From positions 1-51,502 of the IMG/VR virus record IMGVR_UViG_3300042991_000788: DNA of 51,502 nucleotides. The stretch is one strand, 5' to 3'. How positions within the stretch are numbered: the first letter of the stretch is position 1; each line of letters begins with the position of its first letter. The notes beneath the pieces were generated by a model. The model did not search any database. It was not told where the DNA came from and saw nothing but the letters and a program-made list of their open reading frames with translations. Positions 9,575 to 30,549 of the stretch are shown here, piece after piece. Both the position numbers and the translations under genes were made by a program. Source of the DNA: a virus (taxonomy: Duplodnaviria; Caudoviricetes).

Positions 9575-10063
9575 TCAACTGTGGAGTTCTTTTTCTTTAA
9601 AGGATTTTAGTTCTTCAACTAACATTAATTTTCGGGTAAGGAGGACTTTAAATTTCTCTTTGATGTCAATATAACCTTTTAAGTAAAGGGTTTTTGCTGG
9701 GATAAGGGCTTTGTAAAGTTTTAATTCCCAAAGACTTTCATCAGTAAAAGAGTCTTTGTCGGCATATAAACAAGGCCTTACATAGTCTACATAATCCTCT
9801 ACTTCTTTTATACTTGGGAAGGTGTGAAAGAATCCTGTGGTTATTTTGTATAGAACGAATTTGTTTCTTTTAATGTCTTGTATCATGCGAGTTATAAGAG
9901 TTAAATCTGTTTCAAGACTTTTTAATTTATTGACTTCCCAAGTGTATTGAATTTGATATAAAGAAGTTAGGGTATTTGCTTCCGGATTTTTCCACCTTAA
10001 AACGTATACAAAGGCATCATTCTTCATGGTAGTGTATTTTTTACTTATTAGAATTGTACACAT
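9575..10063 (-). CDS. Hypothetical protein (paralog of 10098..10604)
   Basis: Shared MCTxLxSKK, VYVLR, GxFHTF, KAxIPxKxxYLxG. Confidence 0.8.
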   Translation of the reverse strand: MCTILISKKYTTMKNDAFVYVLRWKNPEANTLTSLYQIQYTWEVNKLKSLETDLTLITRMIQDIKRNKFVLYKITTGFFHTFPSIKEVEDYVDYVRPCLYADKDSFTDESLWELKLYKALIPAKTLYLKGYIDIKEKFKVLLTRKLMLVEELKSFKEKELHS

Positions 10064-10097: not shown

Positions 10098-10604
10098 TTA
10101 AAGTTTATCGTTTAAAACTTCAATCAGTTTTAATTTTTCAGTTACTACCGCAGGACAATGAACTTTGGTTTTCTTAATAATGTTTTCTCTGGAATCGGTA
10201 AATTCAAATGTTATTTCAACAGTTCCGTGTAAGTATCGGGATTTTGGTGGAATTATCGCCTTACAAATAACATAATCACAAGGGACGTAAAAAGTTTCTT
10301 GGAGTAAGTTTAAATCAATTTGGTTAGCCTTGATGTACTTCTTAACCGATTGAAATGTTGTGAAGGTGTGAAAACACCCTTCGCCGATAACCCAACCAAT
10401 ATCTTCTTGTAAAGGAGAATTTTTCATTCTTAACCCTTCAGAGAAAGTTTCGTCTTTAAAAGATTCTTTTTGTTCTTTGTTTAGTTTCCAGTAAGTAGAG
10501 TGATATATACTGCGTAACCCGTCTTGAGTGTTAAAGCGCAGTACGTATACTACTCTTTCCTTACGGGTGGTGAGTATTTTTTTTGATTTCAGCATAGTGC
10601 ACAT
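10098..10604 (-). CDS. Hypothetical protein (paralog of 9575..10063)
   Basis: Same shared motifs. Confidence 0.8.
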   Translation of the reverse strand: MCTMLKSKKILTTRKERVVYVLRFNTQDGLRSIYHSTYWKLNKEQKESFKDETFSEGLRMKNSPLQEDIGWVIGEGCFHTFTTFQSVKKYIKANQIDLNLLQETFYVPCDYVICKAIIPPKSRYLHGTVEITFEFTDSRENIIKKTKVHCPAVVTEKLKLIEVLNDKL

Positions 10605-12088: not shown

Positions 12089-12101
12089 GCTGAAATTCCT
12101 T

Positions 12102-12170
12102 TGTTGATTGGTGTTTGCATTAGTGTTGATTAGTGTTGATTCGTGTTAATTTGTGTTGATTCGTGTTGAG
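12102..12170. repeat. 10-bp tandem repeat TAGTGTTGAT-like (~6 copies)
   Basis: tagtgttgat tagtgttgat tcgtgttaat ttgtgttgat tcgtgttgag. Confidence 0.8.
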
Positions 12171-12181
12171 GGTGGTGTTTG

Positions 12182-12900
12182 TGTAATGATAATTGTAATG
12201 ATTATTGTAATACTTTTAATGGTCATTACAACAATCATTACCAAAACCATAACAAAAACCATAACACCACCCTTCACATCACTTTACCACCTCACCCCTT
12301 ACCATCCATTACCAGCAATAATTATCACTCTAACTGAGGTGAAAAGTGTTATTTTAATTTTTGGGTATTAATTATACTCATGTTCGAACGAATATTTTTA
12401 CCCTAACCATGTGTTAATTATGGGGTTAGTTCTTATGTTTACAATAATCATTACAATAATCATTACCAAAATCATTACAATAGTGTGATGACTTATTTTT
12501 CATTCACTCAAAACGTGTCATTTTACCACACCCATAACCCTATGTTAATCATGGTTTTATCCCACGTCATAACAAAACTCATAACAAAACTCATAACCGT
12601 TATCATAACCGTTATGATTAGTTCAAACGCATTTCCTTCCCCTAAAAAACTTTTTCCCCTTCCACCTTACCCCACATTTTCCACCTGGGTGAGCTGTCTC
12701 ATTCAGTACTTGGTTGTACTTCACTGATTTTTTTTTTTCTCTTTTAGTAAGGAATACTATAGGATACAGATAGATTTTTAAACCCAGCGAAAAGGGGTGA
12801 AAAATGAATTGCCCTAAGAATAAGCGTTTGACCTTTTCATAACGGTTATCATAACCGTTATAACGTTTCATTACGAAAATCATTACGTTAATTATAACAC
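12182..12900. repeat. Four clusters of TCAT(T/A)AC motifs at 12-bp period (iteron-like)
   Basis: Clusters near 12182-12266, 12446-12481, 12567-12618 and 12837-12898. Confidence 0.8.
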
Positions 12901-12983
12901 ATTAAATCATTAAAAAAAATAGTTTTTTTCAGTACATTTACCCCCTTTATCCTTACCCTTAAAAGTGCTTAATTATCCTTTGA

Positions 12984-13006
12984 CTATGTATATTTAGTAC
13001 ACATAG
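12984..13006. promoter_or_regulatory. 23-bp palindrome family, copy 7
   Basis: CTATGTATA TTTAG TACACATAG. Confidence 0.9.
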
Positions 13007-13115
13007 GGCGTTCATAATACAAAACTTAGTAAAGAATAAAAGCGGAATTATCCCTTCAAAGTCATCCCTATCCATACAAGACCCCCAAACCCCCTTTTGA
13101 TGTATAGGTATTCAG

Positions 13116-13210
13116 TTCGGGTATTGTGTTCGGGTATCAAGCATCGGGTTTTGATTCGGGTTTTAATGCCGGGTAATTGGTTTGGATAATCGGGTTTTAT
13201 GCGGGGGTTT
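13116..13210. repeat. TCGGGT(A/T) repeats at ~12-14 bp period
   Basis: ttcgggtatt, ttcgggtatc, atcgggtttt, ttcgggtttt, gccgggtaat, atcgggtttt. Confidence 0.7.
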
Positions 13211-13829
13211 AATTTTGCGTTAAAACCGTGTTTAAACCATCACCACGGCTTTAATTAATGAAATTGGTACAAATGCGCATTGTAAAAAATGAATTCCATC
13301 AAAGCGTTATAATGGGCTTTAAAATCGATTCCCTGCATACGGGTTTGCATTCGGGTTTTGCATCCATTTCCATCCATCCGCATCACCATCCCCATTCGTG
13401 TTATAATGATAAGGTTCAATTCTACGTTAAAACCCCATTTAAACCGTCACCACGCCATTAATTATTAAAATCAATCCGAATACCCAATTAAAGAAATAAC
13501 CCACACCAAACCATCATAATACCCCTTAAAATCAATATCATCCCGTATGGTTAAAAACCATCCACCGTGACCGAAATCCATCCACCCAAATGAATGAAAA
13601 CCATTCAGCCCAATTACCCCTTTACACCATCCCCATCCTTACACTCATACCACATCCCCTTTCATCATCATCCAAACAATGGCATTAGTTTTGCAGGTGG
13701 ACAAAGCGAATCAGGAAAACATCCCTTAGGTTCGGTATAAAAACGTAATGCGTGCAGCACTAAACAAAACCGTAATGCACACAACACACAAACAAACACG
13801 CACAACCAAACACAAAAAGCGAGGCCAGT

Positions 13830-15153: not shown

Positions 15154-15176
15154 CTGTGTGTACTTAGTATACATAG
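15154..15176. promoter_or_regulatory. 23-bp palindrome family, copy 8
   Basis: CTGTGTGTA CTTAG TATACATAG. Confidence 0.9.
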
Positions 15177-15265: not shown

Positions 15266-15314
15266 GTCGTTGTAGCGAGGAGTATAATCATTTTGTTTTT
15301 TGGGGACTGTATGT

Positions 15315-15806
15315 ATGAAAAACCTAAGTGTAGAACAAAGAGATGGTTTTGAACCTAAACGCCTTTTATCAAGGCAAAAGGAAATCCTGCGTTGGGTTTC
15401 TTCCGGTTTATACAACCATAAAGAAATTGCAGAAATATTAGGTGTTACCACAGCGACTGTGTGTAATATCATTAGAAGTGAACTTGGTCGTAAGACCTTA
15501 GCTATGTTTGAAGATTCGGCTGACTTTGATGTAGTACAAATGCAGGAAAGAATTAAAACTGCCGCTTCACTTGCTTTGACAATACAAGAAGATATGATGC
15601 TAGATGAGGAAACACCTTTACGCCTTAAGAAAGATTTAACCGATGGTTTCCTTAATCGAGCTGGGTTTAGCCCAGTGAATAAAAATATGAATTTAAATGT
15701 ATCCGCAGGCCTAACTCGTGAGGATATAGAACGAATAAAAACCCGTGCTCGAGAATTGGAAGAATCTGTTAGGGAGAATATTAATGAAAAACTTAATCAG
15801 CTTTAG
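15315..15806 (+). CDS. HTH protein, probable terminase small subunit
   Basis: YNHKEIAEILGVTTATVCNII helix-turn-helix, helical C-terminus, first gene of the late operon. Confidence 0.6.
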   Translation: MKNLSVEQRDGFEPKRLLSRQKEILRWVSSGLYNHKEIAEILGVTTATVCNIIRSELGRKTLAMFEDSADFDVVQMQERIKTAASLALTIQEDMMLDEETPLRLKKDLTDGFLNRAGFSPVNKNMNLNVSAGLTREDIERIKTRARELEESVRENINEKLNQL

Positions 15807-16149
15807 TTTAGTCTTGTTTTTAATCTTACTCTCAACTACAGTAAGTGCTCAAATACTCGGTCAGCGTTATACTCATGTAGACACGATGCAAGTGAGTCCT
15901 ACAGAGAATACAAAGACCTGGAGTACTGAATGGGAGCATGTTGTAGTTTATTCTGATACACTGGATGTATACTTAAAAATCGGTGCTCCGGACACTACAA
16001 GTTGGGATTCAAGATTATTCTTTTACCTTCCTGCAAGTTTCGTTACTTCATTTGGCCCTAGCCCAGGCTTGAAGAAAGTAACTGCAAAAACATTAGTTGG
16101 AACTTGTGTACTTTACTTTGTAGGGGAAAAGAAAGTGAGGCAGTACTAA
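15784..16149 (+). CDS. Signal-peptide-bearing small beta-rich protein
   Basis: ATG 15784 with GGGAG RBS; MKNLISFSLVLFLILLSTTVSA|Q. Confidence 0.75.
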   Translation: MKNLISFSLVLFLILLSTTVSAQILGQRYTHVDTMQVSPTENTKTWSTEWEHVVVYSDTLDVYLKIGAPDTTSWDSRLFFYLPASFVTSFGPSPGLKKVTAKTLVGTCVLYFVGEKKVRQY

Positions 16150-16619
16150 TGAAAATATTATTCTTTCTCTTAATCCCAATCCTGCTCTATGGTCAAGTAG
16201 GTTTTACTTCTGTTGCGGGTGGTGGGGATAGAATTTATAATATCGAAGGAGGACTTGCTGATAACTTAAGTATCAAAACATCTTCAGATAGAATTTACGT
16301 TGCAAGTCCTTTTACTACTCATACATCATTTTCAGCTTCAGATGCAACTCCTGATATTAGTGCGTGTGCAAGTTACATTACCGCTAATGTAAATGCAACT
16401 ACAATTACAACCTTTGATGGAGCTCCTGCAAGTGGTAATCGTATTCTTATGCTCTACATTGGGGATAATAAGACAACCATTCGGCACACTACAGGTACTC
16501 TTGACTGTTGTGCTGGGGGTTATAATCTGACGCCAAAAATAGGTGATGTTTTGACCTTAACTTGGGATGGTAGTAAGTGGTTATGCACATTTCTTTTAAC
16601 GGCAACTACAGGAAATTAG
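16149..16619 (+). CDS. Signal-peptide-bearing virion/collar-like protein
   Basis: TAATG coupling at 16147-16151; MKILFFLLIPILLYG|Q; C-terminal GDVLTLTWDGSKW. Confidence 0.75.
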   Translation: MKILFFLLIPILLYGQVGFTSVAGGGDRIYNIEGGLADNLSIKTSSDRIYVASPFTTHTSFSASDATPDISACASYITANVNATTITTFDGAPASGNRILMLYIGDNKTTIRHTTGTLDCCAGGYNLTPKIGDVLTLTWDGSKWLCTFLLTATTGN

Positions 16620-16620
16620 A

Positions 16621-18990
16621 ATGAAAATAAAGTTATTGTTACTTCTTATCTGTGTGTACTTAGTAAATACAGTCAGTCCTCAATCCTTCAGGGGACTTTC
16701 ACCAAATGATTTAATGGTGAAGAAAGGTGCTTGGTATGATGTTCGGGCTTATAATGCAGGTGTTGCTACATTCAGTAACAATGCTATCAACCAAGCTATT
16801 GATTCTTGTGTTGCTAATGGTGGAGGTACTATTTACTTCCCCCCTGGGACTTATACCCTCAATGATAGTATATTTTTACAGAATAATTTAGTTCTCAAGG
16901 GTGCTGGAGCTTCTACTATTATTTTCGGAAGTCTTTCAAATGGGCCAATATTATCCGCTACCAGTCGTATAGACATTACCATATCTGATATGACCTTTCT
17001 TGGAATTTATGGGGAGTCAGGGATAGGTCTTCGATTTTCTGGTTGCTCTAATATAAAGATACAAAATTGTCATTTTACAACTTTATTATATGGTCTCCAA
17101 TTACTCGGAGCTACTAATGAAAATATCTCTGTTAATGGATGTACCTTTGAACAGTGTACTACAGAGATTCACCATGATGATTGGTCAGCACTTTCCGTAT
17201 ATGGTTCTAATTTTACTTCATATACCCCAGGCTCTTTTCAAGTTGAATCCTTACTTCGAGTAAGGACGGGTGATGTGGAAGTATTGGCAGGAGATTTGAG
17301 CATTGCAGGTAAGGTAGTATCTGGGGATAGTTTGGTAGGGGAAAATCTTAACATAGATCAAAACATCCTTGCAGGAGGTATTGTCTCTGCAGATTCAGCA
17401 TACCTAACCAATAATCTCAGAGTACAGGGAGCTGTTATTGTTCAGGATTCTATAACACTTGATACTAAACATGTCTTAACTACGGATAATATAGTTGAGA
17501 TTAAGCATCCTTTTTGGTTTGGCCCAGACCAATTCCCTCTAACTCAGTGTGTATTTAAAGATACTGCATATAATAATTTAACCAGTACTAGTCGTATTTA
17601 TGTTACTGCCGTCTCTGTTTTTAGTGGAACTAATGATAAAGCGAGATTAACATTAAATTGGTTACCGTATAAAACATCCTTATTTGATCCTCCAGATGCA
17701 ACCCAAAAATGGGCTGCAGTTTGTACAAGTACCTGGGGAGGAGGATTTGGGCCAAATAGAACAGGAGATGCTTCAGTTATAGTTAGAATAGATAGTGCTG
17801 ATTATAGCAATAAGTACATTTATTGTACTTTTCCAAATCAAAATGTAGGGACTTTTCCTTTAGCTGTAAATGATACTTTAGTTATTTATAACCCATTTGA
17901 GGCTGGTTGGGAGTGGAGTGAAGAACCTCTCTTATCTCCAAATTCTTATGTACAATGGAGATATTCTTATTTAAGTGCTGGGCCTACTTTTCTACACAGT
18001 AATGGTTATTTATACATGTTGGTAAATGGGGCAAAAACAATTTCAGGAGAGTCTGCTTTACAATCTATAGGTGTAGCTAGAGTGCATCCAGATTCTATCT
18101 TTACTGCTTCAGCTTGGGAATATTTAAATAGTGATACAGCTCTCATGGATACTTGTACCGCTAAGGGTAGAGGAAGAGGTATCCTAGCAACTTCAATGAT
18201 TAAGTTACGAGATATAGATGCTTATATAGTTTATACTATGCAACATGACGCTACAACAGCTTGGGAAGTATCCTATTTTGTAATGACAGAAGATTTGGAA
18301 ATCTTAGAAGATTTTGGTACAGATATAATTACACCTAAACCTGCTTCTTATGATGCTGGAGCAAATATAGGTACCCTTAGTAGGGGGTTGGGTGCTCCTT
18401 CTGTGATAGAGTATGGTGGAAAATATTTAATGTTATTCTGCAATAGGCATTGTGCAACTACTACTTATGCTGCTCTTGACCATTGGTCCATCTGGGAAGC
18501 AACTTCTACCTATGCAAGAGGGCCTTTTGCTGCAGGAAGTGATAGCATTCTTGCTTCCCATAATAATGAAAGTTTAAGTTATCGCTCTGCTTACCCTGAT
18601 ATGGCTATAATGTTTCTTTTCAAGGGGCGTATTTATGCTCTAATGAGTGGGACTAGCCAATATAGACCTTCAGGATCTAAAGCAAATAGACAGTTTGGTC
18701 TCATCTATAAAGATGAAAGAACTGCATCTTCTCCCTGGGTAGAGGATACAAGAAGTCCTTTATGGATTAATGTTATGCAAAAGTACGATAGTTATGACGC
18801 GTATCCAGGTATTTTTGGTACAGGTACAGGAACAGGAAATAATTATTGGTTTGCTTCTGATCATAGTGGAGGGTATCCTACTTTTTTTAGTAATGTCAAT
18901 GATGGTTTTGCTTATATCTTTTTTGCCTGTAATTCTGGTGCTGATGATTATCGAGTTTGGGGTATGCGACTTAATTCTGAAGATTGGTAA
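16621..18990 (+). CDS. Tailspike-like protein: signal peptide, pectate-lyase-like beta-helix, possible C-terminal glycoside-hydrolase beta-propeller
   Basis: YDVRAYNA...AINQAIDSCVANGGGTIYFPPGTY; PSVIEYGGKYLMLF; MKIKLLLLLICVYLVNTVSP|Q. Confidence 0.75.
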   Translation: MKIKLLLLLICVYLVNTVSPQSFRGLSPNDLMVKKGAWYDVRAYNAGVATFSNNAINQAIDSCVANGGGTIYFPPGTYTLNDSIFLQNNLVLKGAGASTIIFGSLSNGPILSATSRIDITISDMTFLGIYGESGIGLRFSGCSNIKIQNCHFTTLLYGLQLLGATNENISVNGCTFEQCTTEIHHDDWSALSVYGSNFTSYTPGSFQVESLLRVRTGDVEVLAGDLSIAGKVVSGDSLVGENLNIDQNILAGGIVSADSAYLTNNLRVQGAVIVQDSITLDTKHVLTTDNIVEIKHPFWFGPDQFPLTQCVFKDTAYNNLTSTSRIYVTAVSVFSGTNDKARLTLNWLPYKTSLFDPPDATQKWAAVCTSTWGGGFGPNRTGDASVIVRIDSADYSNKYIYCTFPNQNVGTFPLAVNDTLVIYNPFEAGWEWSEEPLLSPNSYVQWRYSYLSAGPTFLHSNGYLYMLVNGAKTISGESALQSIGVARVHPDSIFTASAWEYLNSDTALMDTCTAKGRGRGILATSMIKLRDIDAYIVYTMQHDATTAWEVSYFVMTEDLEILEDFGTDIITPKPASYDAGANIGTLSRGLGAPSVIEYGGKYLMLFCNRHCATTTYAALDHWSIWEATSTYARGPFAAGSDSILASHNNESLSYRSAYPDMAIMFLFKGRIYALMSGTSQYRPSGSKANRQFGLIYKDERTASSPWVEDTRSPLWINVMQKYDSYDAYPGIFGTGTGTGNNYWFASDHSGGYPTFFSNVNDGFAYIFFACNSGADDYRVWGMRLNSEDW
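16650..16672. promoter_or_regulatory. 23-bp palindrome family, copy 9 (inside CDS)
   Basis: CTGTGTGTA CTTAG TAAATACAG. Confidence 0.75.
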
Positions 18991-18993
18991 TAC

Positions 18994-19016
18994 CTGTGTA
19001 TACTAAATACACACAG
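18994..19016. promoter_or_regulatory. 23-bp palindrome family, copy 10
   Basis: CTGTGTATA CTAAA TACACACAG. Confidence 0.9.
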
Positions 19017-19031
19017 GTCTTTTAATAAACC

Positions 19032-19054
19032 CTATGTTTACTAAATATACACAG
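19032..19054. promoter_or_regulatory. 23-bp palindrome family, copy 11
   Basis: CTATGTTTA CTAAA TATACACAG. Confidence 0.85.
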
Positions 19055-19062
19055 GTGGTTAT

Positions 19063-21177
19063 ATGAAAAAATTTTTTGTTCTCATCCTTTGTTTATTTCT
19101 TTCTGGACAAGTTTTATCCCAATATCGGGGTTCTGGTGGTACTGCTTCTTTTAAAGTAGTAACTGATACCACTAGCAATAACACTGGTGAGGGTAAGACA
19201 TTTTGGTTTGGTTCACAACCTTGGATACATGATGGGACTTATTATAAGCTTTTAAATTACTCTACCCCTAATGGAGTACAGGAAGGATATAGATACAGAT
19301 TAGGTAGAGCGACAGGTACGACGGGGCAGGTAATGGCGCTACGGACTGAGAGTACGCCAGATACAACTTACTTTACTACTTACAATGCAGATAACACTGC
19401 ATTACTTACTCGAAACGTAGGCGGACCATATACCTACATGACCAATACTGGAGATAATTTTGGTATTGGTACTACCTCACCTACGACCAAACTCCATGTC
19501 GATGGCAATATTACAGTCACTGACAATGATTGGATTGGATTAGGCGCTGCTGCTGGTAGGATTGAGTTTGATGACCAAACAACAGATGAATTAAATATTC
19601 TAAATGCTCATATAGGAATAGGCACAAGTACTCCAGCACAAATGCTCCATTTAGCAAATGGAGGTAGTATTACTTGGGGTAATAGTTTTAGTACTTCCGC
19701 CCTGAATCAAATGGTGAGGTTGTACGATGATAATGTTTCCCTATATGCTAATACATTAACCTATTCTGGGTCTCGTGTAAAATTGGCAAGTATAATGCCC
19801 ACCCTAGCAGATTTTGCAGTAAGTACTTATTCATCCTATCCAACAAGTCAAAGTAGTTTCAGAGAGATTTTTAGAATTTCTGGCACAAATGGTTTTTTCT
19901 ATGTAGGAGATACCACAAGTGGGGATAAAGATTGGCGACTTCAAATTGGCGATGATGCTGATTGGACGCGATATATTGGTTGGGATGATGGTAATGATAA
20001 TTTTGTATTTGAGGGGGGTAGTTATTGCTTTAATGATGGAGGTGCAGATTACAATTGGCGCATTGAATCTGATGCCGACGCCAATTGCTTTGTCGTAGAC
20101 GGAGGATTAAATGCGGTGGGTATTGGTGTTCTAGCCCCCGCAGCGAAGTTAGATATAACTTCCACTACCGCACAGTTACAGTTGAGTTATAACATGACTA
20201 CTAAGACTGTACTTCAAACTAATAATTATGGAGATTTAACGATTACCCCTTCGGGTGGGGATTTAACTTTAGCTGGAAGATTAGGAATTGGTGGAACTTC
20301 TACTACATCATACTTGAATATACTGGCAACATCAGATTTTTCGACTACTCCAATATTAGCCAGAAGCACAGGATCCAGTGCAAGTGCTGCATGGGCAACT
20401 ACTCAAGTGGTGGCTGTTTCGACTGGAAATGCAGTTGATGGGTTTGGTTCTGTGTTATCATTTGGGTTTACAGACACAGATGTAACAAATTCAATATTAG
20501 GATTTGTTGGAGCTGTTAGAGAAGATGCAGATAATTCTGGAGCAATTATTTGTAGGCCTTATAGAGCAGGAGTAGATCGAGAGGTATTACGAATAAGTGG
20601 TAAAGGCTCGGTCGGTATTAATGATGCTAGCCTGGCTGGAACCTACGATTTAGAAGTCGGGGACTCGACTCAAATTGGAGGTAATTTATTACTTGGTGCT
20701 TATACTGGAGTGTATTCTTATATACATCCAGGGAGCGCCGGATTTACGGTATCAAGTACGGAAGGGATTAAAAAAATTGGGCCAGAAAAGAATGTTTTAA
20801 ATATCTTAGATTTAGCTAAACAGGTTCAAGTGAGGGAGTGGAGTTTCGATAGCAGCAAAGTATATGAGAAGTTTATTCAACCAGTTGGATTTGACACCCT
20901 TACAAAGGTCATGCAAGACAGTATCCGAGATATCTATGAGAAACCTGCAAAGGTAAGAGCAGGTGAATTATCGAGAAAGAAACACTATACACCAATAGCT
21001 GAAGATTGGTATTCAGTCAGTCAGCATTTTGGTGGAAGCCCAAAGGAAATAAACTCAGAACAAGTAATGTGGGCACAATTTCTAATGATTCAAAAGTTAA
21101 TTAAAAGAGTTGAAGCTTTAGAGACTGAAAGTGAAGTAGTAAAAACTCGACTTAATAAATTAGAAAAAGCAAAGTAG
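19063..21177 (+). CDS. Tail-fibre-like protein with signal peptide and C-terminal intramolecular chaperone (peptidase S74-like)
   Basis: Repeated GIGTTSPTTKLHVDG-type units; SSTEGIKK...VREWSF...IAED...IQKLIKRVEALE; MKKFFVLILCLFLSGQVLS|Q. Confidence 0.75.
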   Translation: MKKFFVLILCLFLSGQVLSQYRGSGGTASFKVVTDTTSNNTGEGKTFWFGSQPWIHDGTYYKLLNYSTPNGVQEGYRYRLGRATGTTGQVMALRTESTPDTTYFTTYNADNTALLTRNVGGPYTYMTNTGDNFGIGTTSPTTKLHVDGNITVTDNDWIGLGAAAGRIEFDDQTTDELNILNAHIGIGTSTPAQMLHLANGGSITWGNSFSTSALNQMVRLYDDNVSLYANTLTYSGSRVKLASIMPTLADFAVSTYSSYPTSQSSFREIFRISGTNGFFYVGDTTSGDKDWRLQIGDDADWTRYIGWDDGNDNFVFEGGSYCFNDGGADYNWRIESDADANCFVVDGGLNAVGIGVLAPAAKLDITSTTAQLQLSYNMTTKTVLQTNNYGDLTITPSGGDLTLAGRLGIGGTSTTSYLNILATSDFSTTPILARSTGSSASAAWATTQVVAVSTGNAVDGFGSVLSFGFTDTDVTNSILGFVGAVREDADNSGAIICRPYRAGVDREVLRISGKGSVGINDASLAGTYDLEVGDSTQIGGNLLLGAYTGVYSYIHPGSAGFTVSSTEGIKKIGPEKNVLNILDLAKQVQVREWSFDSSKVYEKFIQPVGFDTLTKVMQDSIRDIYEKPAKVRAGELSRKKHYTPIAEDWYSVSQHFGGSPKEINSEQVMWAQFLMIQKLIKRVEALETESEVVKTRLNKLEKAK

Positions 21178-21188
21178 AGGTAAAGTAA

Positions 21189-21584
21189 ATGCTTAAAATA
21201 TTATCTTTTCTTTTATTATTCATAAGTATTTCAAATGCCCAAACCCAATACTTTGTAAATACTAATCCAGCCTGTCATTGGGATAGTAATAAAGAAGTTG
21301 ATCTTGCAGGTTATGTAGTACATTTAGATATATTTAAGTATAATGAAGGTACTCAGGATACTATCATTTTTGCTCTATCCCAGGATACTACCTTTATGGT
21401 ACCTAATGAATTATTATTTGAAGCAGATTATCGTTTCGGGATACAAGCAGTTGATCTGGCTGGGAATAAAAGTGATATAACTTGGTCTAACAAACAGTGT
21501 TTTAGTTCTACTACAGTTTGTTGGTATGCTCGTTATGATATAACATCTCCAGGAAGTGTAAGAAGTATAAAACCTAGTTTTTAG
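21189..21584 (+). CDS. Signal-peptide-bearing fibronectin type III-like protein
   Basis: WDSNKEVDLAGYVVH...YRFGIQAVDLAGNKSD; MLKILSFLLLFISISNA|Q. Confidence 0.75.
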   Translation: MLKILSFLLLFISISNAQTQYFVNTNPACHWDSNKEVDLAGYVVHLDIFKYNEGTQDTIIFALSQDTTFMVPNELLFEADYRFGIQAVDLAGNKSDITWSNKQCFSSTTVCWYARYDITSPGSVRSIKPSF

Positions 21585-21589
21585 ACAAT

Positions 21590-21612
21590 CTGTGTATATT
21601 TAGTACACATAG
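21590..21612. promoter_or_regulatory. 23-bp palindrome family, copy 12
   Basis: CTGTGTATA TTTAG TACACATAG. Confidence 0.9.
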
Positions 21613-21624
21613 TTAGGAGGATTA

Positions 21625-21909
21625 ATGAAGTATTTTACAAATGGTTGGAATTGGGTTCATTTATGTTATGGTTTTTGGTTACCTGTTATGGGAGCAGCTA
21701 TGTTTAAAAACACTCCTTCCTATTTCTTTTTGCTACTTGCTTTACTAACAGATATTTTAAAAGAGATTTTAGATCAAGTAGCATCATTTCGAGGATCTAC
21801 TTTTATGTTTAAGTTAGGTTTTGATCCTGCGGGTGCTGATCCTAAAGATGTTGGTATGTGTTCTGTTGGTATCTTAATGGCTTTATACGCATTGAGTAGG
21901 TTATGTTAA
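21625..21909 (+). CDS. Small multi-pass membrane protein
   Basis: Two to three hydrophobic segments; AGGAGG RBS. Confidence 0.7.
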   Translation: MKYFTNGWNWVHLCYGFWLPVMGAAMFKNTPSYFFLLLALLTDILKEILDQVASFRGSTFMFKLGFDPAGADPKDVGMCSVGILMALYALSRLC

Positions 21910-22280
21910 ACTCTAGAGTATTAGTATCCATTATCATTCCTACCTACAATGGAGTGGCTACTTTAAAAAGAGCTGTTGATTCTATCAGAAATCAGAAGGC
22001 TAAATGGACCTATGAAATTTTAGTCTGTGATGATAATTCAGTAGATAATACCAGAGAATTAGCAATGAAATTAGGGTGCCAAGTTTTTATTAATGAAACC
22101 CATACTGGTGGTCCAAACCCAGGAAAGAATCTTGGCCTTAAAAAAGCTAGAGGTAAGTTTATTTGTTTCCTAGATCAGGATGATGAATGGTTACCTAATA
22201 AAATAGAAGCTCAGTTATCTGAAATGGAGAAGGGAGCAGACCTTGTTGCCTCAGCAGCAATTATCCGAATGGAGAATTAA
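21903..22280 (+). CDS. Glycosyltransferase family 2, N-terminal part
   Basis: VSIIIPTYN, CDDNSVD, FLDQDDEWLPNK. Confidence 0.85.
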   Translation: MLNSRVLVSIIIPTYNGVATLKRAVDSIRNQKAKWTYEILVCDDNSVDNTRELAMKLGCQVFINETHTGGPNPGKNLGLKKARGKFICFLDQDDEWLPNKIEAQLSEMEKGADLVASAAIIRMEN

Positions 22281-22698
22281 AGAGGGAAATATTTATTACA
22301 TGAGTAGTATAATGCTCAGAAATGAAAATATTCCTGATTTTGAAACTATCTATAATCAAGTAGATTATGATTGGCTTCTTAAAGTTACTGAGGGAAAGAA
22401 ATGTGTTAATATCCCAGCTTGTGTTCTTCGTTATGTTAATGGGAAGAATCTTAGTTTAAATGAAGAATATAGGGTAAGAGCCTTAGGTATAACCTTGAGT
22501 ACTTGTGGTAAGGATTTAAGTACGGTTCAAAGAGTTTTTGGTACTCATGCTAGGTATTATTATAAAGTATTAAATGGAGAAAAAGCAAGATTCTGGTTTA
22601 AGAAAACTAAATGGAACTTCAAGATAGTTACATACTATTTGACAAGTTACTCTATTACTTGCATGAAATTTATTAATAAACACTGGCAGGTTTTTTAA
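22243..22698 (+). CDS. Glycosyltransferase family 2, C-terminal part (different frame; start uncertain)
   Basis: SSIMLR...DYDWLLKV continues the GT2 pattern. Confidence 0.65.
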   Translation: MLPQQQLSEWRIKEGNIYYMSSIMLRNENIPDFETIYNQVDYDWLLKVTEGKKCVNIPACVLRYVNGKNLSLNEEYRVRALGITLSTCGKDLSTVQRVFGTHARYYYKVLNGEKARFWFKKTKWNFKIVTYYLTSYSITCMKFINKHWQVF

Positions 22699-23087
22699 TG
22701 AACAGATATAAGGTAAAGGAAAAGATTGCTTTAATTAACTTTCATTTTGAGTTTGGTACTAGGATTATAAATAATTTTAGATCATTAATGATGGTAGTTA
22801 TAGTAGCAAAACTATTTGAGGTACCACTTTATTTTTATCCTTTTATTATTTTTAGCTATGGAAGTGCTTGCTGGTTCCTTGGATATATTTCTGATAAGTT
22901 TAATTTGCCACCTCTTTTTCAATCTGTGTACTACACTAAATCAGGTAATCAGGTATTGATTATGCAACAAATATTACAGGGGATACGGAGTGGATATAAT
23001 GATAGAGAATACCCTATTATTGAAACTGATAATAATAGTACTACCTCTATTAGCAACAATAATCGGGGGATTCATAAAGGTAATTAA
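22698..23087 (+). CDS. Membrane protein (two predicted helices)
   Basis: LMMVVIVAKLF and LYFYPFIIFSYGSACWFLGYI. Confidence 0.65.
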   Translation: MNRYKVKEKIALINFHFEFGTRIINNFRSLMMVVIVAKLFEVPLYFYPFIIFSYGSACWFLGYISDKFNLPPLFQSVYYTKSGNQVLIMQQILQGIRSGYNDREYPIIETDNNSTTSISNNNRGIHKGN

Positions 23088-23217
23088 AGATGTTGAGATT
23101 ATAAGAGTTCAACAAGTATTGTTTTTTCAAACTTTAACTTCACTAGGAGAACGTGTTCATGAATGTGAAACCTGGTCGCGTACTCATATAGAAAGTAAAC
23201 ATAATGGATCTAAATAA
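22999..23217 (+). CDS. Small single-pass membrane protein (holin-like)
   Basis: ATG 22999 with GGAG RBS; LLLKLIIIVLPLLATIIGGFI then a charged helix. Confidence 0.55.
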   Translation: MIENTLLLKLIIIVLPLLATIIGGFIKVIKDVEIIRVQQVLFFQTLTSLGERVHECETWSRTHIESKHNGSK

Positions 23218-23241
23218 ATATTTTTACCTCTGGAGGTGGAG

Positions 23242-23745
23242 ATGAAAAAGGTTTTCTTTTTATTATTTATCTTAACAGGTGTAACTTTTGGACAAAATTT
23301 TTATGATAGTCCAAGTCGAGCAGTTATGGATACATTAGGTACTGTATCCTACATCACAAGAGATTTTTATTTCAATCCTGCAAATACTAATACTGGAGTT
23401 ATTTGGAATAATGGTACTTCAGAATTAAAAGTAGTTTCTACTACATACAGTGTTATCCAAACAGTAGATACTTTAACAGTAGATGCTTGGGGAATTACTT
23501 TAATTAAGCATAAAAAACCCTTTTGGGCTAAGAATGAAACTGTATCTTACTATACAGATAGTACTCGTATAGGTACTGTCCCAGTAACAGCAGATACTTC
23601 CCTTAAGAATTTTGCTTTTGACCAGATTTTTTCTACCTTTTACACCTATGATGGTGTTCGGGTAAAGTATAAGTTAGGCGGTAGTGATGCTGATTCAGTA
23701 AAGATTTGGTCAGTAGTAAGGTTATATATTCCAAGTAAGGATTGA
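23242..23745 (+). CDS. Signal-peptide-bearing beta-rich protein
   Basis: GGAGG RBS; MKKVFFLLFILTGVTFG|Q. Confidence 0.75.
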   Translation: MKKVFFLLFILTGVTFGQNFYDSPSRAVMDTLGTVSYITRDFYFNPANTNTGVIWNNGTSELKVVSTTYSVIQTVDTLTVDAWGITLIKHKKPFWAKNETVSYYTDSTRIGTVPVTADTSLKNFAFDQIFSTFYTYDGVRVKYKLGGSDADSVKIWSVVRLYIPSKD

Positions 23746-25307
23746 TAATGGAACTGAATCTTAATACAATTTCTGCAGATGAGAAAGATTTGCTGGGTGA
23801 GATGCTTGCTCGGGGTTATAAGGATAGTGCTTTCTTAGCAAGATTACTTTTTCCTACTGCTTTTAGATCTGAAATAAGTGTATTGCATAAAAGATATTTT
23901 GATTTTATAGATAACTGTGAATGTCCTAAAAAAGCTATTGTTGCACCTAGAGGATTTGGTAAGACAACTATCAATGAGTTTACAGCAAAGAAAAGAATTC
24001 TTTACCAAGATAAGAAATTCATAGGTTATCTTACAGCAAGTGGTGATGTTGCAGTAACTATTTCAGATAGTATTAAGACTGACCTTATTAGTAATTCTTT
24101 AGTAAAGAAAATCTTTGGGGATGTCAGTACTAGTAAAGTAGAAGGTATTGATGAGAAATGGGCGGAGAAATCTTGGATAGCTAATGGTTATACTATGATC
24201 CTCCCTAGGGGGTATGGTCAGCAGGTTAATGGTTTGAAATGGCTTTCTTATAGGCCTGACCTTTGGTTAGTTGATGATCTTGAGGATAGAGTTGAAGTAA
24301 GGAGTGAAGAACAAAGGACTAAATTACGTAAGTGGTTTTATGGGGTTTTGTTATACACTTTCTCTCAGTATGCAAGTGAAAGTAGTTCTCTTGAAATTAT
24401 TTATACTGATACTATAAAACATCCAGATGCTTTTATCTGTCATTTGATGGATGATCCAGATTGGGAAGTACTTAACCTTCCTGTATGTGATGATAAATAT
24501 CATACTTTAGCACCTAGTTTTAAGACTCAAGAAACACTTGATAAAGAAATTATAAGTCATAGGCGTAATGGTACTATGGATGTGTTTGCTATGGAGATGA
24601 TGGGGCGAGCACAGAGTGAAGAAACAAAGGATTTTAAATCAAGTTGGATTAAATACTATAGTGAAAATGATGAAGATTTCATTAAGAAAGTAAAGCCAAG
24701 ATTAATAAATATCTTATTATGGGATCCAGCTAAGACGAAAAGAGTTACGTCTGCAGATACAGGTTTAGTTGTCTGGGGAATAGACCTCGAGTACAATGCG
24801 TTTTATGCCAGATTAGCAGTAGGGGAAAAACTTACTGTTGGGGAACAACATGATAGAGTAATGTCTCTTGCAGAATGGTATAAGATTCAGGTTCTTGGAA
24901 TAGAAGTTAATAGTCTTGAAGATCATATTCTCTACCCTTTTATAAATGAATGTAATAGAAGAAAGAAGTTCTGGCTTCCTCCACTTATACAAGAGTTAAA
25001 ACCACGGGCTGGTAAGGGAGAATTAAGAGGTGAGGAAGGAGGTAAAGAAGGAAGAATATCTTTACTTTATCCTTACTACGAAAAAGGTCTTGTTTACCAT
25101 GAGTTAATAGGTGCTAATGCACTTGAAGCTCAGTTACTTGGATCAAGATTACGTGATATTGCAGATGCAGCAGCATACCTTCCACAGGTTTTAATGAGTG
25201 GATTGAAGTTTATGTCTCCTCAATCTGTTGAGGAGGATCTTTTTATGATTGAAGATGAATATAAACAATTAACGAATGAGCCTATTTTTACTCGGGCTTT
25301 AATTTAA
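23742..25307 (+). CDS. terL: Terminase large subunit
   Basis: Walker A APRGFGKT, Walker B LWLVDDLE, nuclease WDPA...D...DIADAAAY. Confidence 0.92.
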   Translation: MIMELNLNTISADEKDLLGEMLARGYKDSAFLARLLFPTAFRSEISVLHKRYFDFIDNCECPKKAIVAPRGFGKTTINEFTAKKRILYQDKKFIGYLTASGDVAVTISDSIKTDLISNSLVKKIFGDVSTSKVEGIDEKWAEKSWIANGYTMILPRGYGQQVNGLKWLSYRPDLWLVDDLEDRVEVRSEEQRTKLRKWFYGVLLYTFSQYASESSSLEIIYTDTIKHPDAFICHLMDDPDWEVLNLPVCDDKYHTLAPSFKTQETLDKEIISHRRNGTMDVFAMEMMGRAQSEETKDFKSSWIKYYSENDEDFIKKVKPRLINILLWDPAKTKRVTSADTGLVVWGIDLEYNAFYARLAVGEKLTVGEQHDRVMSLAEWYKIQVLGIEVNSLEDHILYPFINECNRRKKFWLPPLIQELKPRAGKGELRGEEGGKEGRISLLYPYYEKGLVYHELIGANALEAQLLGSRLRDIADAAAYLPQVLMSGLKFMSPQSVEEDLFMIEDEYKQLTNEPIFTRALI

Positions 25308-25338: not shown

Positions 25339-25980
25339 ATGGCAATTCCTGGACAAGTAACGGGTGTAGTTGTTTCGAAAAATGGTAGTAGAAGATTCTA
25401 CCTTTCTTATAATAAGGTAGTAGGGTCTGGATATTACATTTACCTTTCTATTGATGGAGGGTTAAATTACATTATCATAAAGCATGTAGATGATGATGAT
25501 GAAATAAATACTCAAGTAGGTCGTGTCGATGCTGCTACAGAGTATTATATTAAAGTAGCTGCTTTTAATGCTGAAGGAGTCGGAGCAGCGTCTGTACCTA
25601 TTAGTTCTACTACACTTGTAGAAAATATACAGGGTGCTTGGGTTGGAGGAGGAAAAAAGAATTATGATGCAAATTCTATGTACCCTGAAGAAGCACAAAA
25701 TCTTGATAGTCTGCGAGGAGAAGGGACTACAGATATAGAAATTACAATGGTGCCTGGGGGGGATAATGGTCAGTTCCAATACAACAATTCAGGTCATTTG
25801 TATGGGACTGATGATTTAAAAATAAATATAAATACATGTATAGTTACAGCTTATCTTCTTGCTATAAGTAACATAAAAAGTGGATCTAGTCAATCTGCTG
25901 CAGGTGCTGTAGCAGGAGAAATTTGGAAGACAGCAGCTCATGTTCTTCTTCCAAATAATGTACTAATGATAGGAGTTTAA
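25339..25980 (+). CDS. Virion protein with N-terminal fibronectin type III domain
   Basis: TEYYIKVAAFNAEGVGAAS; GGDNGQFQYNNSG fibre-type motif. Confidence 0.7.
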   Translation: MAIPGQVTGVVVSKNGSRRFYLSYNKVVGSGYYIYLSIDGGLNYIIIKHVDDDDEINTQVGRVDAATEYYIKVAAFNAEGVGAASVPISSTTLVENIQGAWVGGGKKNYDANSMYPEEAQNLDSLRGEGTTDIEITMVPGGDNGQFQYNNSGHLYGTDDLKININTCIVTAYLLAISNIKSGSSQSAAGAVAGEIWKTAAHVLLPNNVLMIGV

Positions 25981-29577: not shown

Positions 29578-30549
29578 ATGAGTATTAATGCTCAAATGCA
29601 AAAATTAGGTCTAACACCAGATGGGAATTATGGTATTACTATCCAGGGGGATCTGAAAGTAGATGGGACTTTAACTAACTTAGTTGGTAAAGGAAAAATC
29701 TTTTATGTCAGTTCAGTTTCTGGTAGTGCCAATTATGCTGGTATAACACCAGCTACACCCCTGGCTACTATAGATGCAGCAATTGGTAAATGTATTGCAA
29801 GTCGTGGAGATGTAATTGTTATCCTTCCTTCTCACGCAGAAGACATTGCTTCTGCTGTTTCTTTAGTTTGTGATATTGCTGGTGTTACTATTATCGGTTT
29901 GGGTAAGGGAACGATGAGACCTAAACTGACTTTTACTGCTGCAGCTGGTAGTATTGTAGTTAGCGCTGCTAATGTTACATTTCAGAATATTATTTTTGAA
30001 GCTGCTTTTGCAGATGTAGCTGATGCCTTTACTCCATCAGCAGTTAATTTAACCCTTAAAGATTGTGATTTTCAGGATAGTGCGGCTGATAAAAACTTTA
30101 TTGAATTAGTTGATACTGGTACGACAGATAACCAGTGTGATGGTTTAACCTTTACTGGTTGTAGTTGGATTTCCCCAGATTTACTTACTACCTCAATGAT
30201 TAATCTTGATGCAGATTGTAATAAGATTACCATTGAAAATTGTTATGTTAATCTGGGTGTTAATACTAGTGATTTACCTATTTGTATAGATGTTGCTACT
30301 GGTAAGGATGTTACTAATCTGAAGATCTTGAATAATTATTTCATCAGATTAAATGATGCTAATCCTTTATTAGTAACTGCAAATACAACTACAGCTAACA
30401 CTGGAATTATTAAAAGTAACTGTATCGTGCATCGTGATACTGCTAGTGAGTTACTCGTGACTGCAGCAACATTAATTGGCTTTTTTGAGAACAAAGCTAC
30501 TGCTGTCGCTGATTTCTCTGGTTATACGTTACCTGCGTCTGATAGTTAA
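29578..30549 (+). CDS. Beta-helix virion protein (head fibre/decoration candidate)
   Basis: PLATIDAAIG...GDVIVILP...GVTIIGLG pectin-lyase-fold pattern; no signal peptide. Confidence 0.7.
   Translation: MSINAQMQKLGLTPDGNYGITIQGDLKVDGTLTNLVGKGKIFYVSSVSGSANYAGITPATPLATIDAAIGKCIASRGDVIVILPSHAEDIASAVSLVCDIAGVTIIGLGKGTMRPKLTFTAAAGSIVVSAANVTFQNIIFEAAFADVADAFTPSAVNLTLKDCDFQDSAADKNFIELVDTGTTDNQCDGLTFTGCSWISPDLLTTSMINLDADCNKITIENCYVNLGVNTSDLPICIDVATGKDVTNLKILNNYFIRLNDANPLLVTANTTTANTGIIKSNCIVHRDTASELLVTAATLIGFFENKATAVADFSGYTLPASDS

Follow-up and report, generated by a model that had tools for sequence, protein, structure and literature searches.

Gene content of the block between terS and terL

The window considered here, that is, the whole 51.5 kb stretch of viral DNA that was analysed, carries on its plus strand a block of genes bordered by a terS-like gene (15300-15806) on the left and by terL (23742-25307; phrog_38, 7.1e-54) on the right, which is where the preliminary description had placed it. 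The terS-like gene, composed of an HTH (Sigma70_r4/GerE) and a C-terminal part, matches the terminase small subunit family phrog_2538 (8.9e-5) and is 46% identical to an ORF of the related phage record L004 (9531-10007) that directly abuts terL; the same terS-like ORF abuts terL in L005. The assignment of 15300-15806 as terS is credible on these matches.

Six genes of the block, SP1 to SP6, begin with a predicted leader followed by Gln (a hyphen marks the predicted cut in what follows). SP1 (15784-16149, 121 aa from ATG) is the conserved first gene of the cassette and joins a VSA-Q leader to a beta-sandwich of ~99 aa, for which an AF2 model built from a 14-sequence alignment (pLDDT 86.9) gives jelly-roll and cupin matches. 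SP2 (16149-16619, 156 aa, LYG-Q) contains a Phage_depo_C beta-sandwich domain at residues 66-144 (PF25692, 1.6e-8, 35.3 bits against a cut-off of 25). SP3 (16621-18990, 789 aa, VSP-Q) consists of a pectate-lyase-type beta-helix (PF12708, 1.2e-10; PF13229, 4.5e-7) and a C-terminal region of ~500 aa, with a weak GH43 match (0.0022) that falls under the cut-off. SP4 (19063-21177, 704 aa, VLS-Q) is conserved at both ends, in an N-domain (about residues 20-125) and a C-terminal part of ~180 aa, on either side of a variable middle that carries fibre collar motifs. SP5 (21189-21584, 131 aa, SNA-Q) carries a small Ig-like or beta-rich domain (Big_3_2, 8.9e-4, below cut-off), and SP6 (23242-23745, 167 aa, TFG-Q) is a beta-rich protein of ~150 aa after its leader, whose stop codon overlaps the start of terL.

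The three small hydrophobic proteins and the glycosyltransferase that had been reported in the same block are present, the latter split in two frames. The first hydrophobic protein (21625-21909, 94 aa) is a holin-like candidate and the second (22698-23087) has 129 aa; both are without family match in Pfam, PHROGs and NCBIfam. The third (22990-23217, 75 aa) has one N-terminal transmembrane segment and overlaps the 22698 ORF in another frame. The GT2 glycosyltransferase (21903-22698) occupies two overlapping frames, 21903-22280 and 22243-22698, of which the first alone matches PF00535 (1.3e-28); contigs of two other sequencing runs cover the split region (22059-22289) gap-free. A 23-nt intergenic palindrome, recognised by sequence match, is present in two copies between SP3 and SP4 (18994-19054), and further copies at 15154-15176 and 21590-21612 divide the cassette into units; there are 17 matches in the window against 0 expected. 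The GC content of the block is that of the genome.

Leaders of the six proteins

Leaders were called by a rule of our own, not by SignalP, and the calls rest on this rule together with conservation. The rule requires Lys or Arg and the absence of Asp and Glu in the n-region before the core, a 10-residue core with a mean Kyte-Doolittle value of at least 2.2, and small residues at -3 and -1 of the cut site, Pro being tolerated at -1. Applied to the 67 window ORFs of at least 60 aa, it flagged nine. Six of these are SP1 to SP6; the remainder, an antisense ORF at 14667 and two internal starts (one of 39 aa at 4455, one at 21688 within the membrane protein ORF), all lack Gln behind the predicted cut. 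The six Gln(+1) leaders of the window are confined to 7.96 kb. The six N-termini noted in the preliminary description are in the ORF listing (starts at 15784, 16149, 16621, 19063, 21189 and 23242), and its reading of a basic n-region, a hydrophobic core and a Gln after the cut agrees with the rule in all six cases. Each of them also has the full layout of a type I signal peptide, with a basic n-region, a core of 7-15 residues and a polar c-region. Five (VSA, LYG, VLS, SNA and TFG) obey the -3/-1 rule; the sixth, SP3, has the Pro at -1 that had been remarked on, which is atypical, as Pro in this position is normally disfavoured by signal peptidase I.

In the Bacteroidetes Q-rule, substrates of signal peptidase I show Gln after the cut (PMC5837995). 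Because Gln at +1 fits this rule, Sec/signal-peptidase-I export of the six proteins in a Bacteroidota host is very likely, and the host itself is very probably a Bacteroidota bacterium; export and cleavage are what we infer from the predicted leaders. An NCBIfam scan (E<=0.1) found no T9SS C-terminal sorting domain of the TIGR04183/TIGR04131 type in any of the six proteins, and none of them has a lipobox with Cys at +1. The Bacteroidetes O-glycosylation sequon D[ST][AILVMT] occurs 25 times in the six proteins against 9.9 expected, a count reached by none of 2000 shuffles; since the reversed control motif is likewise enriched (15 against 7.4), this enrichment is not counted as support.

It could be argued that these hydrophobic N-termini are not export signals at all, either because translation starts downstream or because they play another role, and that the proteins stay in the cytoplasm and join virions as usual. 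A public gene call for SP1 (P0051, 87 aa) does start at an internal Met, and SP3 combines its Pro at -1 with a degenerate copy of the palindrome inside its coding sequence (16650-16672). However, conservation in the SP1 family runs upstream of that Met as far as the predicted cut, which speaks against a downstream start, and the conserved mature N-terminus (Q-x-L-G-x-R-Y) begins exactly there. The start codons of the cassette genes either are translationally coupled to the upstream gene, overlapping it or lying 2-12 nt from it, or lie 8-9 nt past an intergenic palindrome, and Gln at +1 in six of six proteins makes sense only if the cut occurs. Together with the conservation of leaders in diverged homologues, these points make a lack of export very improbable.

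That conservation was examined in homologues of four of the proteins. The closest full-length homologues of SP3 and SP4 both keep their leaders: P0036 and P0040, 39% identical to SP3, have LFS-Q in place of its VSP-Q, and P0004, 44% identical to SP4, has VSA-Q. All 12 full-length relatives of SP1 carry a leader, which in seven of them is followed by Gln; L008 has an SP6 homologue that retains VWG-Q. In each of these families the leader sequence has diverged and the leader has been kept; because leaders persist in SP1, SP3, SP4 and SP6 homologues while their sequence drifts, the pattern is that of a functional signal peptide, and the predicted leaders are under selection. As the leaders appear genuine, lie at true initiation codons and are kept in homologues, export, which had been proposed for all six proteins, is the natural reading of the sequences.

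A conserved position in related phages

Leader-bearing genes adjoin terS or terL in six related phage records (L002, L004, L008, L010, L020 and G004). In L010, G004 and L020, whose terL is 52%, 42% and 32% identical to that of the window, terS is followed by three to four leader-bearing ORFs and then by terL; L004 has three such ORFs ahead of terS-terL, and the contigs of L002 and L008 end with a leader-bearing ORF that adjoins terL. This ORF of L008 is 40% identical to SP6 (2.6e-26), and in L002 and L010 the position of SP6 is taken by leader-bearing ORFs of 167 and 188 aa. Gln occupies +1 in every leader of the window (6/6), L010 (3/3), L020 (4/4), L008 (1/1) and L002 (1/1) and is less frequent in L004 (1/3) and G004 (1/4). 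On the coding strand downstream of terL, the six mapped loci yielded one flagged ORF, weakly hydrophobic, in L020. A lipobox with Cys at +1 is found in one ORF of L010, where it belongs to the company of the cassette, and in one ORF of L020. The leader-bearing cassette amounts to 15-20% of the genome. In G004 the slot measures 11 kb, compared with 8 kb in the window, and contains three beta-helix proteins (821, about 1215 and 1106 aa; PF13229, 1e-6 to 1e-14), all with leaders, as well as a CHAP endolysin and two membrane proteins just upstream of terL.

Outside this group the cassette was not found in any cultured relative. The capsid protein is distantly related to that of PaMx41/119X (about 25% identity), and PaMx41 has just a 48-aa ORF between terS and terL; in a Desulfofustis phage terS abuts terL and the large proteins are leaderless. 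A terL scan of the genomes of 185,579 species found no prophage relative.

These observations bear on whether the block could be a host-derived "moron" or conversion cassette, a set of secreted bacterial glycanases, adhesin-like fibres and a glycosyltransferase taken from Bacteroidota genomes to alter the surface of the infected or lysogenised cell, with no lytic role. The GT2 and membrane proteins of the block would suit such an origin, and leaders are common among distant relatives of the SP4 collar region (10 of 32 pass the leader rule and four more have hydrophobic N-termini), some of them labelled as proteins of bacterial MAGs. Q-rule proteins of Porphyromonas gingivalis phages are also read as surface modifiers (PMC10367356). 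Yet, unlike a moron, the cassette and the SP1 and SP6 genes keep their position in phages whose terL identity is as low as 32%; the SP1 relatives lie on contigs of phage size (30-48 kb), no integrase was found in the ORFs scanned, and the GT2 is seen in the window and not in the relatives. With the lack of a prophage relative and the unremarkable GC content of the block, this makes a moron origin improbable. Nor is a Gtr-type cluster recognisable, as neither small membrane protein matches GtrA or another family and the GT2 is split.

The neighbourhood of terL in G004 raises a different possibility, that of an enlarged lysis cassette in which exported proteins stand in for endolysin and spanins in the Bacteroidota envelope, with SP6 exported by Sec to act as a wall hydrolase and the small membrane proteins serving as holin or pinholin. 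No endolysin was found among the window ORFs scanned against Pfam, PHROGs and NCBIfam, and the CHAP endolysin of G004 gave no tblastn match in the window; in G004 this endolysin and the two membrane proteins hold the place that SP6 and the membrane proteins hold here. T7 has spanins between terS and terL, and Sec-exported endolysins exist, an example being Lys44 of phage fOg44 (PMC6116005). On the other side, neither SP6 nor SP1 has a match among hydrolase families or solved structures, SP1 is modelled as a plain beta-sandwich, and an ordinary endolysin may sit unrecognised among about 20 small ORFs outside the scan. Beta-helix and fibre-like proteins as large as 700-1200 aa are not known to serve in lysis. 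A replacement of the lysis machinery by the six proteins is, on balance, unlikely.

Spike-like and fibre-like members

The description of SP3 as tailspike-like holds in part: the beta-helix is there, but its matches begin at residues 37-49, directly past a 20-residue leader, and leave no room for a virion-binding domain; a Pfam scan found no N-terminal particle-binding domain ahead of the helix. A match to tail-spike PHROGs (3.4e-9) covers residues 38-90 only. SP4 had been likened by eye to a chaperone-cleaved trimeric fibre. An S74 intramolecular chaperone is not supported: PF13884 was not matched at E<=0.1 in Pfam, an HMM built from eight PF13884-bearing C-termini matched neither SP4 nor P0004, and a PDB profile search gave no match. 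The fibre likeness of SP4 rests on a short collar motif (phrog_9942, 2.6e-5); a search of 1.84 billion representatives gave P0004 as the one true relative of its N-domain, and contigs of other samples have a different sequence in place of its middle part.

The remark that an obvious long tail fibre gene is otherwise missing from the tail module is literally correct, and no such gene follows the 1733-aa protein in the place of gene 17 in T7. It missed, however, a leaderless right-handed beta-helix protein encoded between the scaffold-like and capsid genes (29578-30549, plus strand) and recognised by structure model match. The ESM Atlas model of the exact sequence (pTM 0.81) reaches a TM of 0.87 to a viral "pectate lyase family" cluster (feature score 0.98), and five relatives share a conserved N-terminal motif of ~20 residues ahead of a variable body. 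On this model the protein is a candidate for the conventional virion spike; as the gene adjoins the capsid gene in this phage and likewise in an unrelated podovirus, the protein may decorate the head instead of forming the tail spike. The leaderless and leader-bearing beta-helix proteins show two classes that, by prediction, have different addresses.

Proteins of the SP3 and SP4 type could still be true receptor-binding proteins that are exported by Sec, mature in the periplasm in the manner of host surface proteins (through pyroglutamate and possibly disulfides or O-glycans) and dock onto tail-complete, spike-less particles built in the cytoplasm, either after lysis or once the holin has opened the inner membrane. 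The large leader-bearing proteins are multiple, mosaic and highly variable between phages whose tail proteins (248-546 aa) are conserved over their full length, and their domain repertoire of beta-helix, Phage_depo_C and fibre collar motifs fits such a role. There are several per genome, as the three beta-helix proteins of G004 illustrate; SP4 pairs its conserved N-domain with a variable middle that is swapped in other samples; the place of gene 17 lacks a long fibre gene; and the leader-bearing genes of L004 lie just upstream of terS, like gene 17 in T7. Against this, tailed-phage particles are assembled in the cytoplasm and no description of a Sec-exported tail fibre or tailspike was found in the papers retrieved. 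SP3 has no anchor domain before its beta-helix, the N-domain of SP4 is related to P0004 alone and resembles no recognised virion-binding module, there is a leaderless beta-helix protein whose N-terminal motif is conserved, and the same interval holds lysis-type and membrane proteins. Docking outside the cytoplasm is doubtful on this balance, though it deserves more weight than a lysis or moron origin.

Comparison with known systems

The slot between terS and terL is also used for envelope-addressed proteins in T7, where genes 18.5 and 18.7 (Rz-like spanins) lie between terS (gene 18) and terL (gene 19) and the genes for the holin and the tail fibre come immediately before terS. The T7 slot holds two small lysis proteins, whereas here 8 kb (11 kb in G004) contain leader-bearing proteins of the 700-1200-aa class; no sequence similarity of the cassette proteins to spanins was found. 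Sec export is shared with the small lipoproteins Llp of T5 and Cor, which mask the receptor on the producing cell, and with pIII of filamentous phages, a receptor-binding protein whose particle is assembled at the membrane and extruded through the envelope; none of these is a tailed-phage fibre or spike.

Virion tailspike depolymerases of the P22 gp9 and K1F endosialidase type resemble the cassette in beta-helix, Phage_depo_C, multiplicity and mosaic turnover. Classical tailspikes are leaderless and bind the particle through an N-terminal domain; in SP3 the leader is followed directly by the helix. Free, non-virion phage depolymerases are closer in another respect, being diffusible enzymes released on lysis that strip capsule or EPS. 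The forms that are known are cytoplasmic proteins let out by lysis, and no Sec leader on a free depolymerase was found in the papers retrieved. Plaque halos have been attributed to virions and/or free enzymes, and late phage proteins of the type of Lys44 (Oenococcus phage fOg44) and P1 Lyz are taken by host Sec to the wall compartment before lysis (PMC6116005). Such Sec-exported or SAR endolysins are peptidoglycan hydrolases, and none of the six cassette proteins matches a wall-hydrolase family.

A precedent for the Gln itself is found in Porphyromonas gingivalis prophages (Matrishin et al. 2023), in which predicted cleavage by signal peptidase I exposes Gln in phage proteins that are read as an adaptation to the host secretion system and as possible surface modifiers; that case concerns five genes of unknown function in temperate, siphovirus-like prophages (PMC10367356). 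By comparison, the present proteins are of depolymerase and fibre type and belong to a positionally conserved cassette of a podovirus clade for which no prophage relative was found.

A proposed late module directed at the envelope

The explanation we favour, and to which we give about an even chance of being right, is that of a late podovirus module directed at the envelope, exporting glycan-binding and glycan-cutting factors that are free or cell-bound rather than parts of the virion. Sec would carry the six leader-bearing products across the inner membrane, where signal peptidase I would cut the leaders; the Gln so exposed at the N-terminus would be cyclised to pyroglutamate by the host, and the six would mature outside the cytoplasm. 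They would comprise large, fast-changing members, a glycanase-like beta-helix protein and a fibre-like protein, and small proteins (SP1, SP2, SP5 and SP6) taken to be beta-sandwiches. Because none has a T9SS C-terminal domain or a lipobox, they would stay in the periplasm until lysis. Pre-positioned there during the late phase, they would act on host surface polysaccharides at or before lysis and then be freed, which would ease egress, keep progeny from sticking to debris, hold off superinfecting phages and strip the cells nearby. Within the same module, lysis would fall to the interleaved small membrane proteins and perhaps also to SP6.

What the sequences show directly are the leaders and their conservation, the conserved place of the cassette and the domains it encodes. 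The periplasmic location and the role outside the virion are what we infer, and several observations argue for them: the company of the cassette is envelope-directed (three membrane proteins and the GT2 in the window), SP3 is without a virion-anchor domain, and the leaderless beta-helix protein of the head operon provides another candidate for the spike. Several points speak against this envelope-directed module: an obvious periplasmic substrate for a glycanase is wanting; the large members, being multiple, mosaic and variable, behave like receptor-binding proteins; the tail proteins are conserved throughout and the 1733-aa protein is followed by no fibre gene; the leaderless beta-helix protein may belong to the head; and SP3 has its disfavoured Pro at -1.

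Implications

The phage proteins known to use Sec are lysis proteins, small receptor blockers or unknowns. Here, host-style leaders are carried across a clade by depolymerase-type and fibre-type proteins, a class that normally decides host range and is built on the particle in the cytoplasm. Whichever reading holds, Gln at +1 of such leaders gives a cheap host-phylum marker for uncultured phages. If the proteins are on virions, they would be an exception to the rule of cytoplasmic completion, and the assembly of these tailed phages would have a final step outside the cytoplasm. As free exported enzymes they would form a class of secreted phage glycanases adapted to the way in which Bacteroidota mature their proteins and shaping the ecology of biofilms and capsules, and such genes should then not be counted as tailspikes in host-range prediction.

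Genome Organization and Relatives

The virus record IMGVR_UViG_3300042991_000788 (51,502 bases) is of linear class, with a completeness estimate of 100% in IMG/VR. Replication genes (primase, DNA polymerase, ParB-methyltransferase, exonuclease and a Sak4-like protein) occupy the minus strand at both genome ends, and a single long plus-strand late operon, running from about 15.3 to 43.3 kb, carries a terS-like gene, terL, an SU10-type portal, a capsid protein, and tail and internal proteins of up to 1733 aa. Among cultured phages, the capsid protein is closest to those of a Desulfofustis phage (39% identity) and of the PaMx41/119X group of Pseudomonas podoviruses (about 25%); PaMx41 has the same general gene architecture as the window. 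No RNA datasets are present among the sequencing runs listed for the phage.

The window contains 17 copies of a 23-nt palindrome with 9-nt arms and a 5-nt loop, against none expected, for example at 3172, 5728, 8356, 11294, 15154, 18994, 19032, 21590, 25309, 32078, 37685, 37723 and 42956. Nearly all of them lie between genes, and those on the late strand are often 8–14 nt upstream of a start codon; they are also the points where assembly contigs of sequencing run X1 break or are cross-joined. The element could be a processing site, terminator or operator of the phage. One copy lies between the divergent early and late arms, in a 1.7-kb region (12100–13800) that has no credible ORFs, also holds short ATTACAA/CATTAC-type repeats (12175–12492) and may serve as an origin or for control. 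The record opens with a 27-nt unit repeated seven times in tandem (1–282). Direct 1.3-kb copies at 618–1947 and 49415–50747, 48.8 kb apart and 83–90% identical, each encode ORFs of 252/253 and 175 aa; they are either diverged paralogues located at both ends of the genome or the result of a record in which two strain variants of a circularly permuted genome of roughly 48.8 kb have been joined. Two adjacent early ORFs with similar N-termini, 9575–10063 (162 aa) and 10098–10604 (168 aa), may also be paralogues; the sole family match of the pair is a weak one of the second ORF to an unnamed PHROG (0.002).

Six Leader-Bearing Genes Precede terL

The preliminary description had placed six signal-peptide proteins, including tailspike- and fibre-like ones, between terS and terL. 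All six ORFs and their N-termini are found in the ORF listing of the window, at 15784 (SP1), 16149 (SP2), 16621 (SP3, 789 aa), 19063 (SP4, 704 aa), 21189 (SP5) and 23242 (SP6) on the plus strand, head to tail and tightly packed with their neighbours, and the block does contain the three small hydrophobic ORFs and the GT2 glycosyltransferase attributed to it. The gene upstream of SP1, which gives a weak PHROG match, has an HTH and is 46% identical to the terL-abutting gene of a related contig, is with fair confidence assigned as terS. A rule-based test for leaders (signal peptides) in ORFs of at least 60 aa was positive for nine of the 67 window ORFs, SP1–SP6 among them; the remaining three, all doubtful and all lacking Gln after the cut, are a 39-aa internal start, an ORF in antisense orientation and a start inside a membrane protein. 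The −3/−1 rule is obeyed by five of the six leaders. SP3, the lone member with an atypical Pro at −1, has a degenerate copy of the 23-nt palindrome within its leader coding sequence (16650–16672, codons 10–17), and the leader sequence of its homologues is unrelated.

Diverged homologues of SP1, SP3, SP4 and SP6 keep their leaders. The sole close homologue of SP4, P0004 (44% identity over the full length), has a leader of different sequence and equal hydrophobicity that ends VSA↓Q (arrow, predicted cut), and conservation between the two starts directly past the cut. SP3 has a single homologous cluster, whose full-length members P0036 and P0040 (805 aa, 39% identity) carry a leader ending LFS↓Q; a 176-aa ORF in the related contig L008, whose leader ends VWG↓Q, shares 40% identity with SP6. 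The SP1 family comprises 14 database proteins; a hydrophobic leader is present in all 12 full-length relatives (a count that excludes one fragment and the truncated call made for the window itself), Gln follows the cut in seven of the 12, and the conserved mature N-terminus, Q-x-L-G-x-R-Y, has its first residue exactly at the predicted cut. The public SP1 gene call, which starts at an internal Met, is thus wrong, because the family leader and the conservation from the predicted cut lie upstream of it. In Bacteroidetes signal-peptidase-I substrates, Gln after the cut is the rule and is cyclised to pyroglutamate, according to PMC5837995 and PMC10653852. Since the conserved leaders and their Gln fit this rule, the cassette leaders very likely direct export in a Bacteroidota host; that they are unused seems highly improbable.

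The Cassette Across Related Phages

Related records were recruited by portal, terL and SP1 profiles and their loci mapped with one script; portal and SP1 profiles outperformed terL or SP4 alone, which gave one locus or none among viral contigs. In contig L010 (terL 52% identical), terS is followed by ORFs of 659, 403, 124 and 188 aa, with three Gln(+1) leaders and one lipobox, and then by terL. The complete genome G004 (terL 42%; 123-bp terminal repeats) has, between terS and terL, an SP1 homologue, three beta-helix proteins with leaders (821, about 1215 and 1106 aa), a leaderless CHAP endolysin on the terL side of the cassette and two membrane proteins. In L020 (terL 32%), the interval encodes a 189-aa leader protein, a 98-aa ORF, an SP1 homologue and leader proteins of 495 and 461 aa, all four leader proteins having Gln at +1. 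Leader-bearing ORFs of 121, 835 and 437 aa lie upstream of an adjacent terS–terL pair in L004, and L002 and L008 each show a leader-bearing ORF abutting terL, with the contig end beyond; L003, L005, L007 and L013 end too near terL to be informative. Downstream of terL, the coding strand of the six script-mapped loci yielded a single flagged ORF, weakly hydrophobic, in L020. The cassette is absent from PaMx41 and from the Desulfofustis phage, whose large proteins have no leaders; it is a feature of the clade. SP6 has no detectable similarity to the L002 leader-bearing ORF of equal size and place. In G004 (also L017/L018), the beta-helix gene of roughly 1215 aa starts in or just before the 123-bp terminal repeat, so that its leader coding region spans the physical genome end.

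Predicted Architecture of the Cassette Proteins

SP3 had been described as tailspike-like: a pectate-lyase-type beta-helix does begin at about residue 37–49, but no anchor domain was found, and about 500 residues without a family follow. Its GH43 match is below threshold and its single-sequence AlphaFold2 model has a mean pLDDT of 34.2. The further proposal that SP4 is a chaperone-cleaved fibre is unsupported, because its C-terminal 180 residues, although well conserved with P0004, match neither PF13884, our own S74 model nor solved chains. A short collar motif is the only part of SP4 common to many proteins; a HMMER search of its N-domain against 1.84 billion representatives returned one true relative, P0004, and six further matches to repeat proteins were judged spurious. 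Against phage databases, SP3 and SP4 give short motif matches only, and PDB sequence and profile searches with SP3, SP4, SP6 and the tail proteins 33060, 35111 and 36200 gave nothing usable. SP2 contains a Phage_depo_C beta-sandwich scoring above the Pfam cut-off. SP1 is confidently modelled (pLDDT 86.9) as a small beta-sandwich with only generic Foldseek neighbours (Ena pilins, plant-virus capsids, cupins and small unnamed phage proteins), from which no function was drawn; for SP6, an ESM Atlas lookup gave scores of only 0.81 and a poor model. An O-glycosylation sequon is enriched in the six proteins, and was discarded as evidence because its reversed control motif is likewise enriched.

Two further observations concern the block itself. 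The SP4 gene shows a mosaic exchange in its variable part: contigs of runs X2 and X3 carry 197 other letters in place of its middle (19497–19896), between flanks that match at about 85–90%. The GT2 gene (21903–22698) is read in two overlapping frames split near 22243–22280. The split is not a one-off assembly error, since 22059–22289 is crossed without a gap by contigs of two further runs, at about 97% identity; it may reflect a pseudogene, a pair of genes or a programmed shift.

Leaderless Beta-Helix and Other Virion Candidates

The preliminary description saw no other obvious long fibre gene. Past the 1733-aa gene this holds, as nothing but a 99-aa membrane protein follows; it had, however, overlooked a 323-aa leaderless ORF (29578–30549) between the scaffold-like and capsid genes, which is predicted to be a right-handed beta-helix (Atlas model of the exact sequence: pTM 0.81, TM 0.87 to a viral cluster of the pectate-lyase family, feature score 0.98). 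Five relatives have ORFs of 248–327 aa in this position, sharing a roughly 20-residue N-terminal motif and otherwise diverged, some pairs beyond BLAST detection. This conserved motif with a variable body is the pattern of a particle-bound spike, and makes the protein a candidate for a spike of the virion, on its head or its tail. Because a homologue directly follows the capsid gene in an unrelated podovirus, the spike may belong to the head and not to the tail. No similarity was found between the leaderless and the leader-bearing beta-helix proteins. The tail proteins proper are conserved from end to end. The gene after terL (25339–25980) has positional homologues in L004, L005, L008 and L010. 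Its product, which may be a head fibre or decoration, is conserved in an Fn3-like domain at the N-terminus, and the length of its C-terminal part ranges from about 100 to 340 aa between relatives.

Possible Roles of the Cassette

The products of the terS–terL interval in these phages appear to be all envelope-addressed: they include type-I leaders, lipoboxes and membrane proteins, with an endolysin in G004 and a glycosyltransferase in the window. T7 has two spanins in the terS–terL slot that the leader cassette occupies in the window. Scans of roughly 45 window ORFs with Pfam, PHROGs or NCBIfam, a set without about 20 small ones, brought up no recognisable endolysin, spanin or integrase. A pure lysis role for the cassette is improbable. 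A genome scan found no prophage relatives, and a host-derived conversion cassette is more improbable still; both readings, like that of unused leaders, are less likely than an envelope-directed module acting outside the virion. Such a module is the best-supported reading, at about even probability, given the envelope-addressed interval, the T7 spanin slot, SP3 without an anchor domain and the leaderless helix elsewhere. As none of the six proteins has a T9SS sorting domain or lipobox, they should remain periplasmic in a Bacteroidota cell until lysis. The large leader proteins might instead be exported receptor-binding proteins that are added to particles at lysis, a distinctly less probable reading that stays alive because the large members evolve and multiply in the manner of such proteins, take up as much as a fifth of the genome and have no evident periplasmic substrate as free enzymes.

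Phage proteins with Q-rule leaders are reported as genes of unknown function in Porphyromonas gingivalis prophages (PMC10367356), and Sec-exported endolysins are textbook matter (PMC6116005). The cassette proteins would belong with such Sec-exported phage accessory proteins, which are already known as a kind. Full-text literature searches returned no paper on tailed-phage proteins of tailspike or fibre type that carry leaders, nor on a conserved cassette of such proteins.
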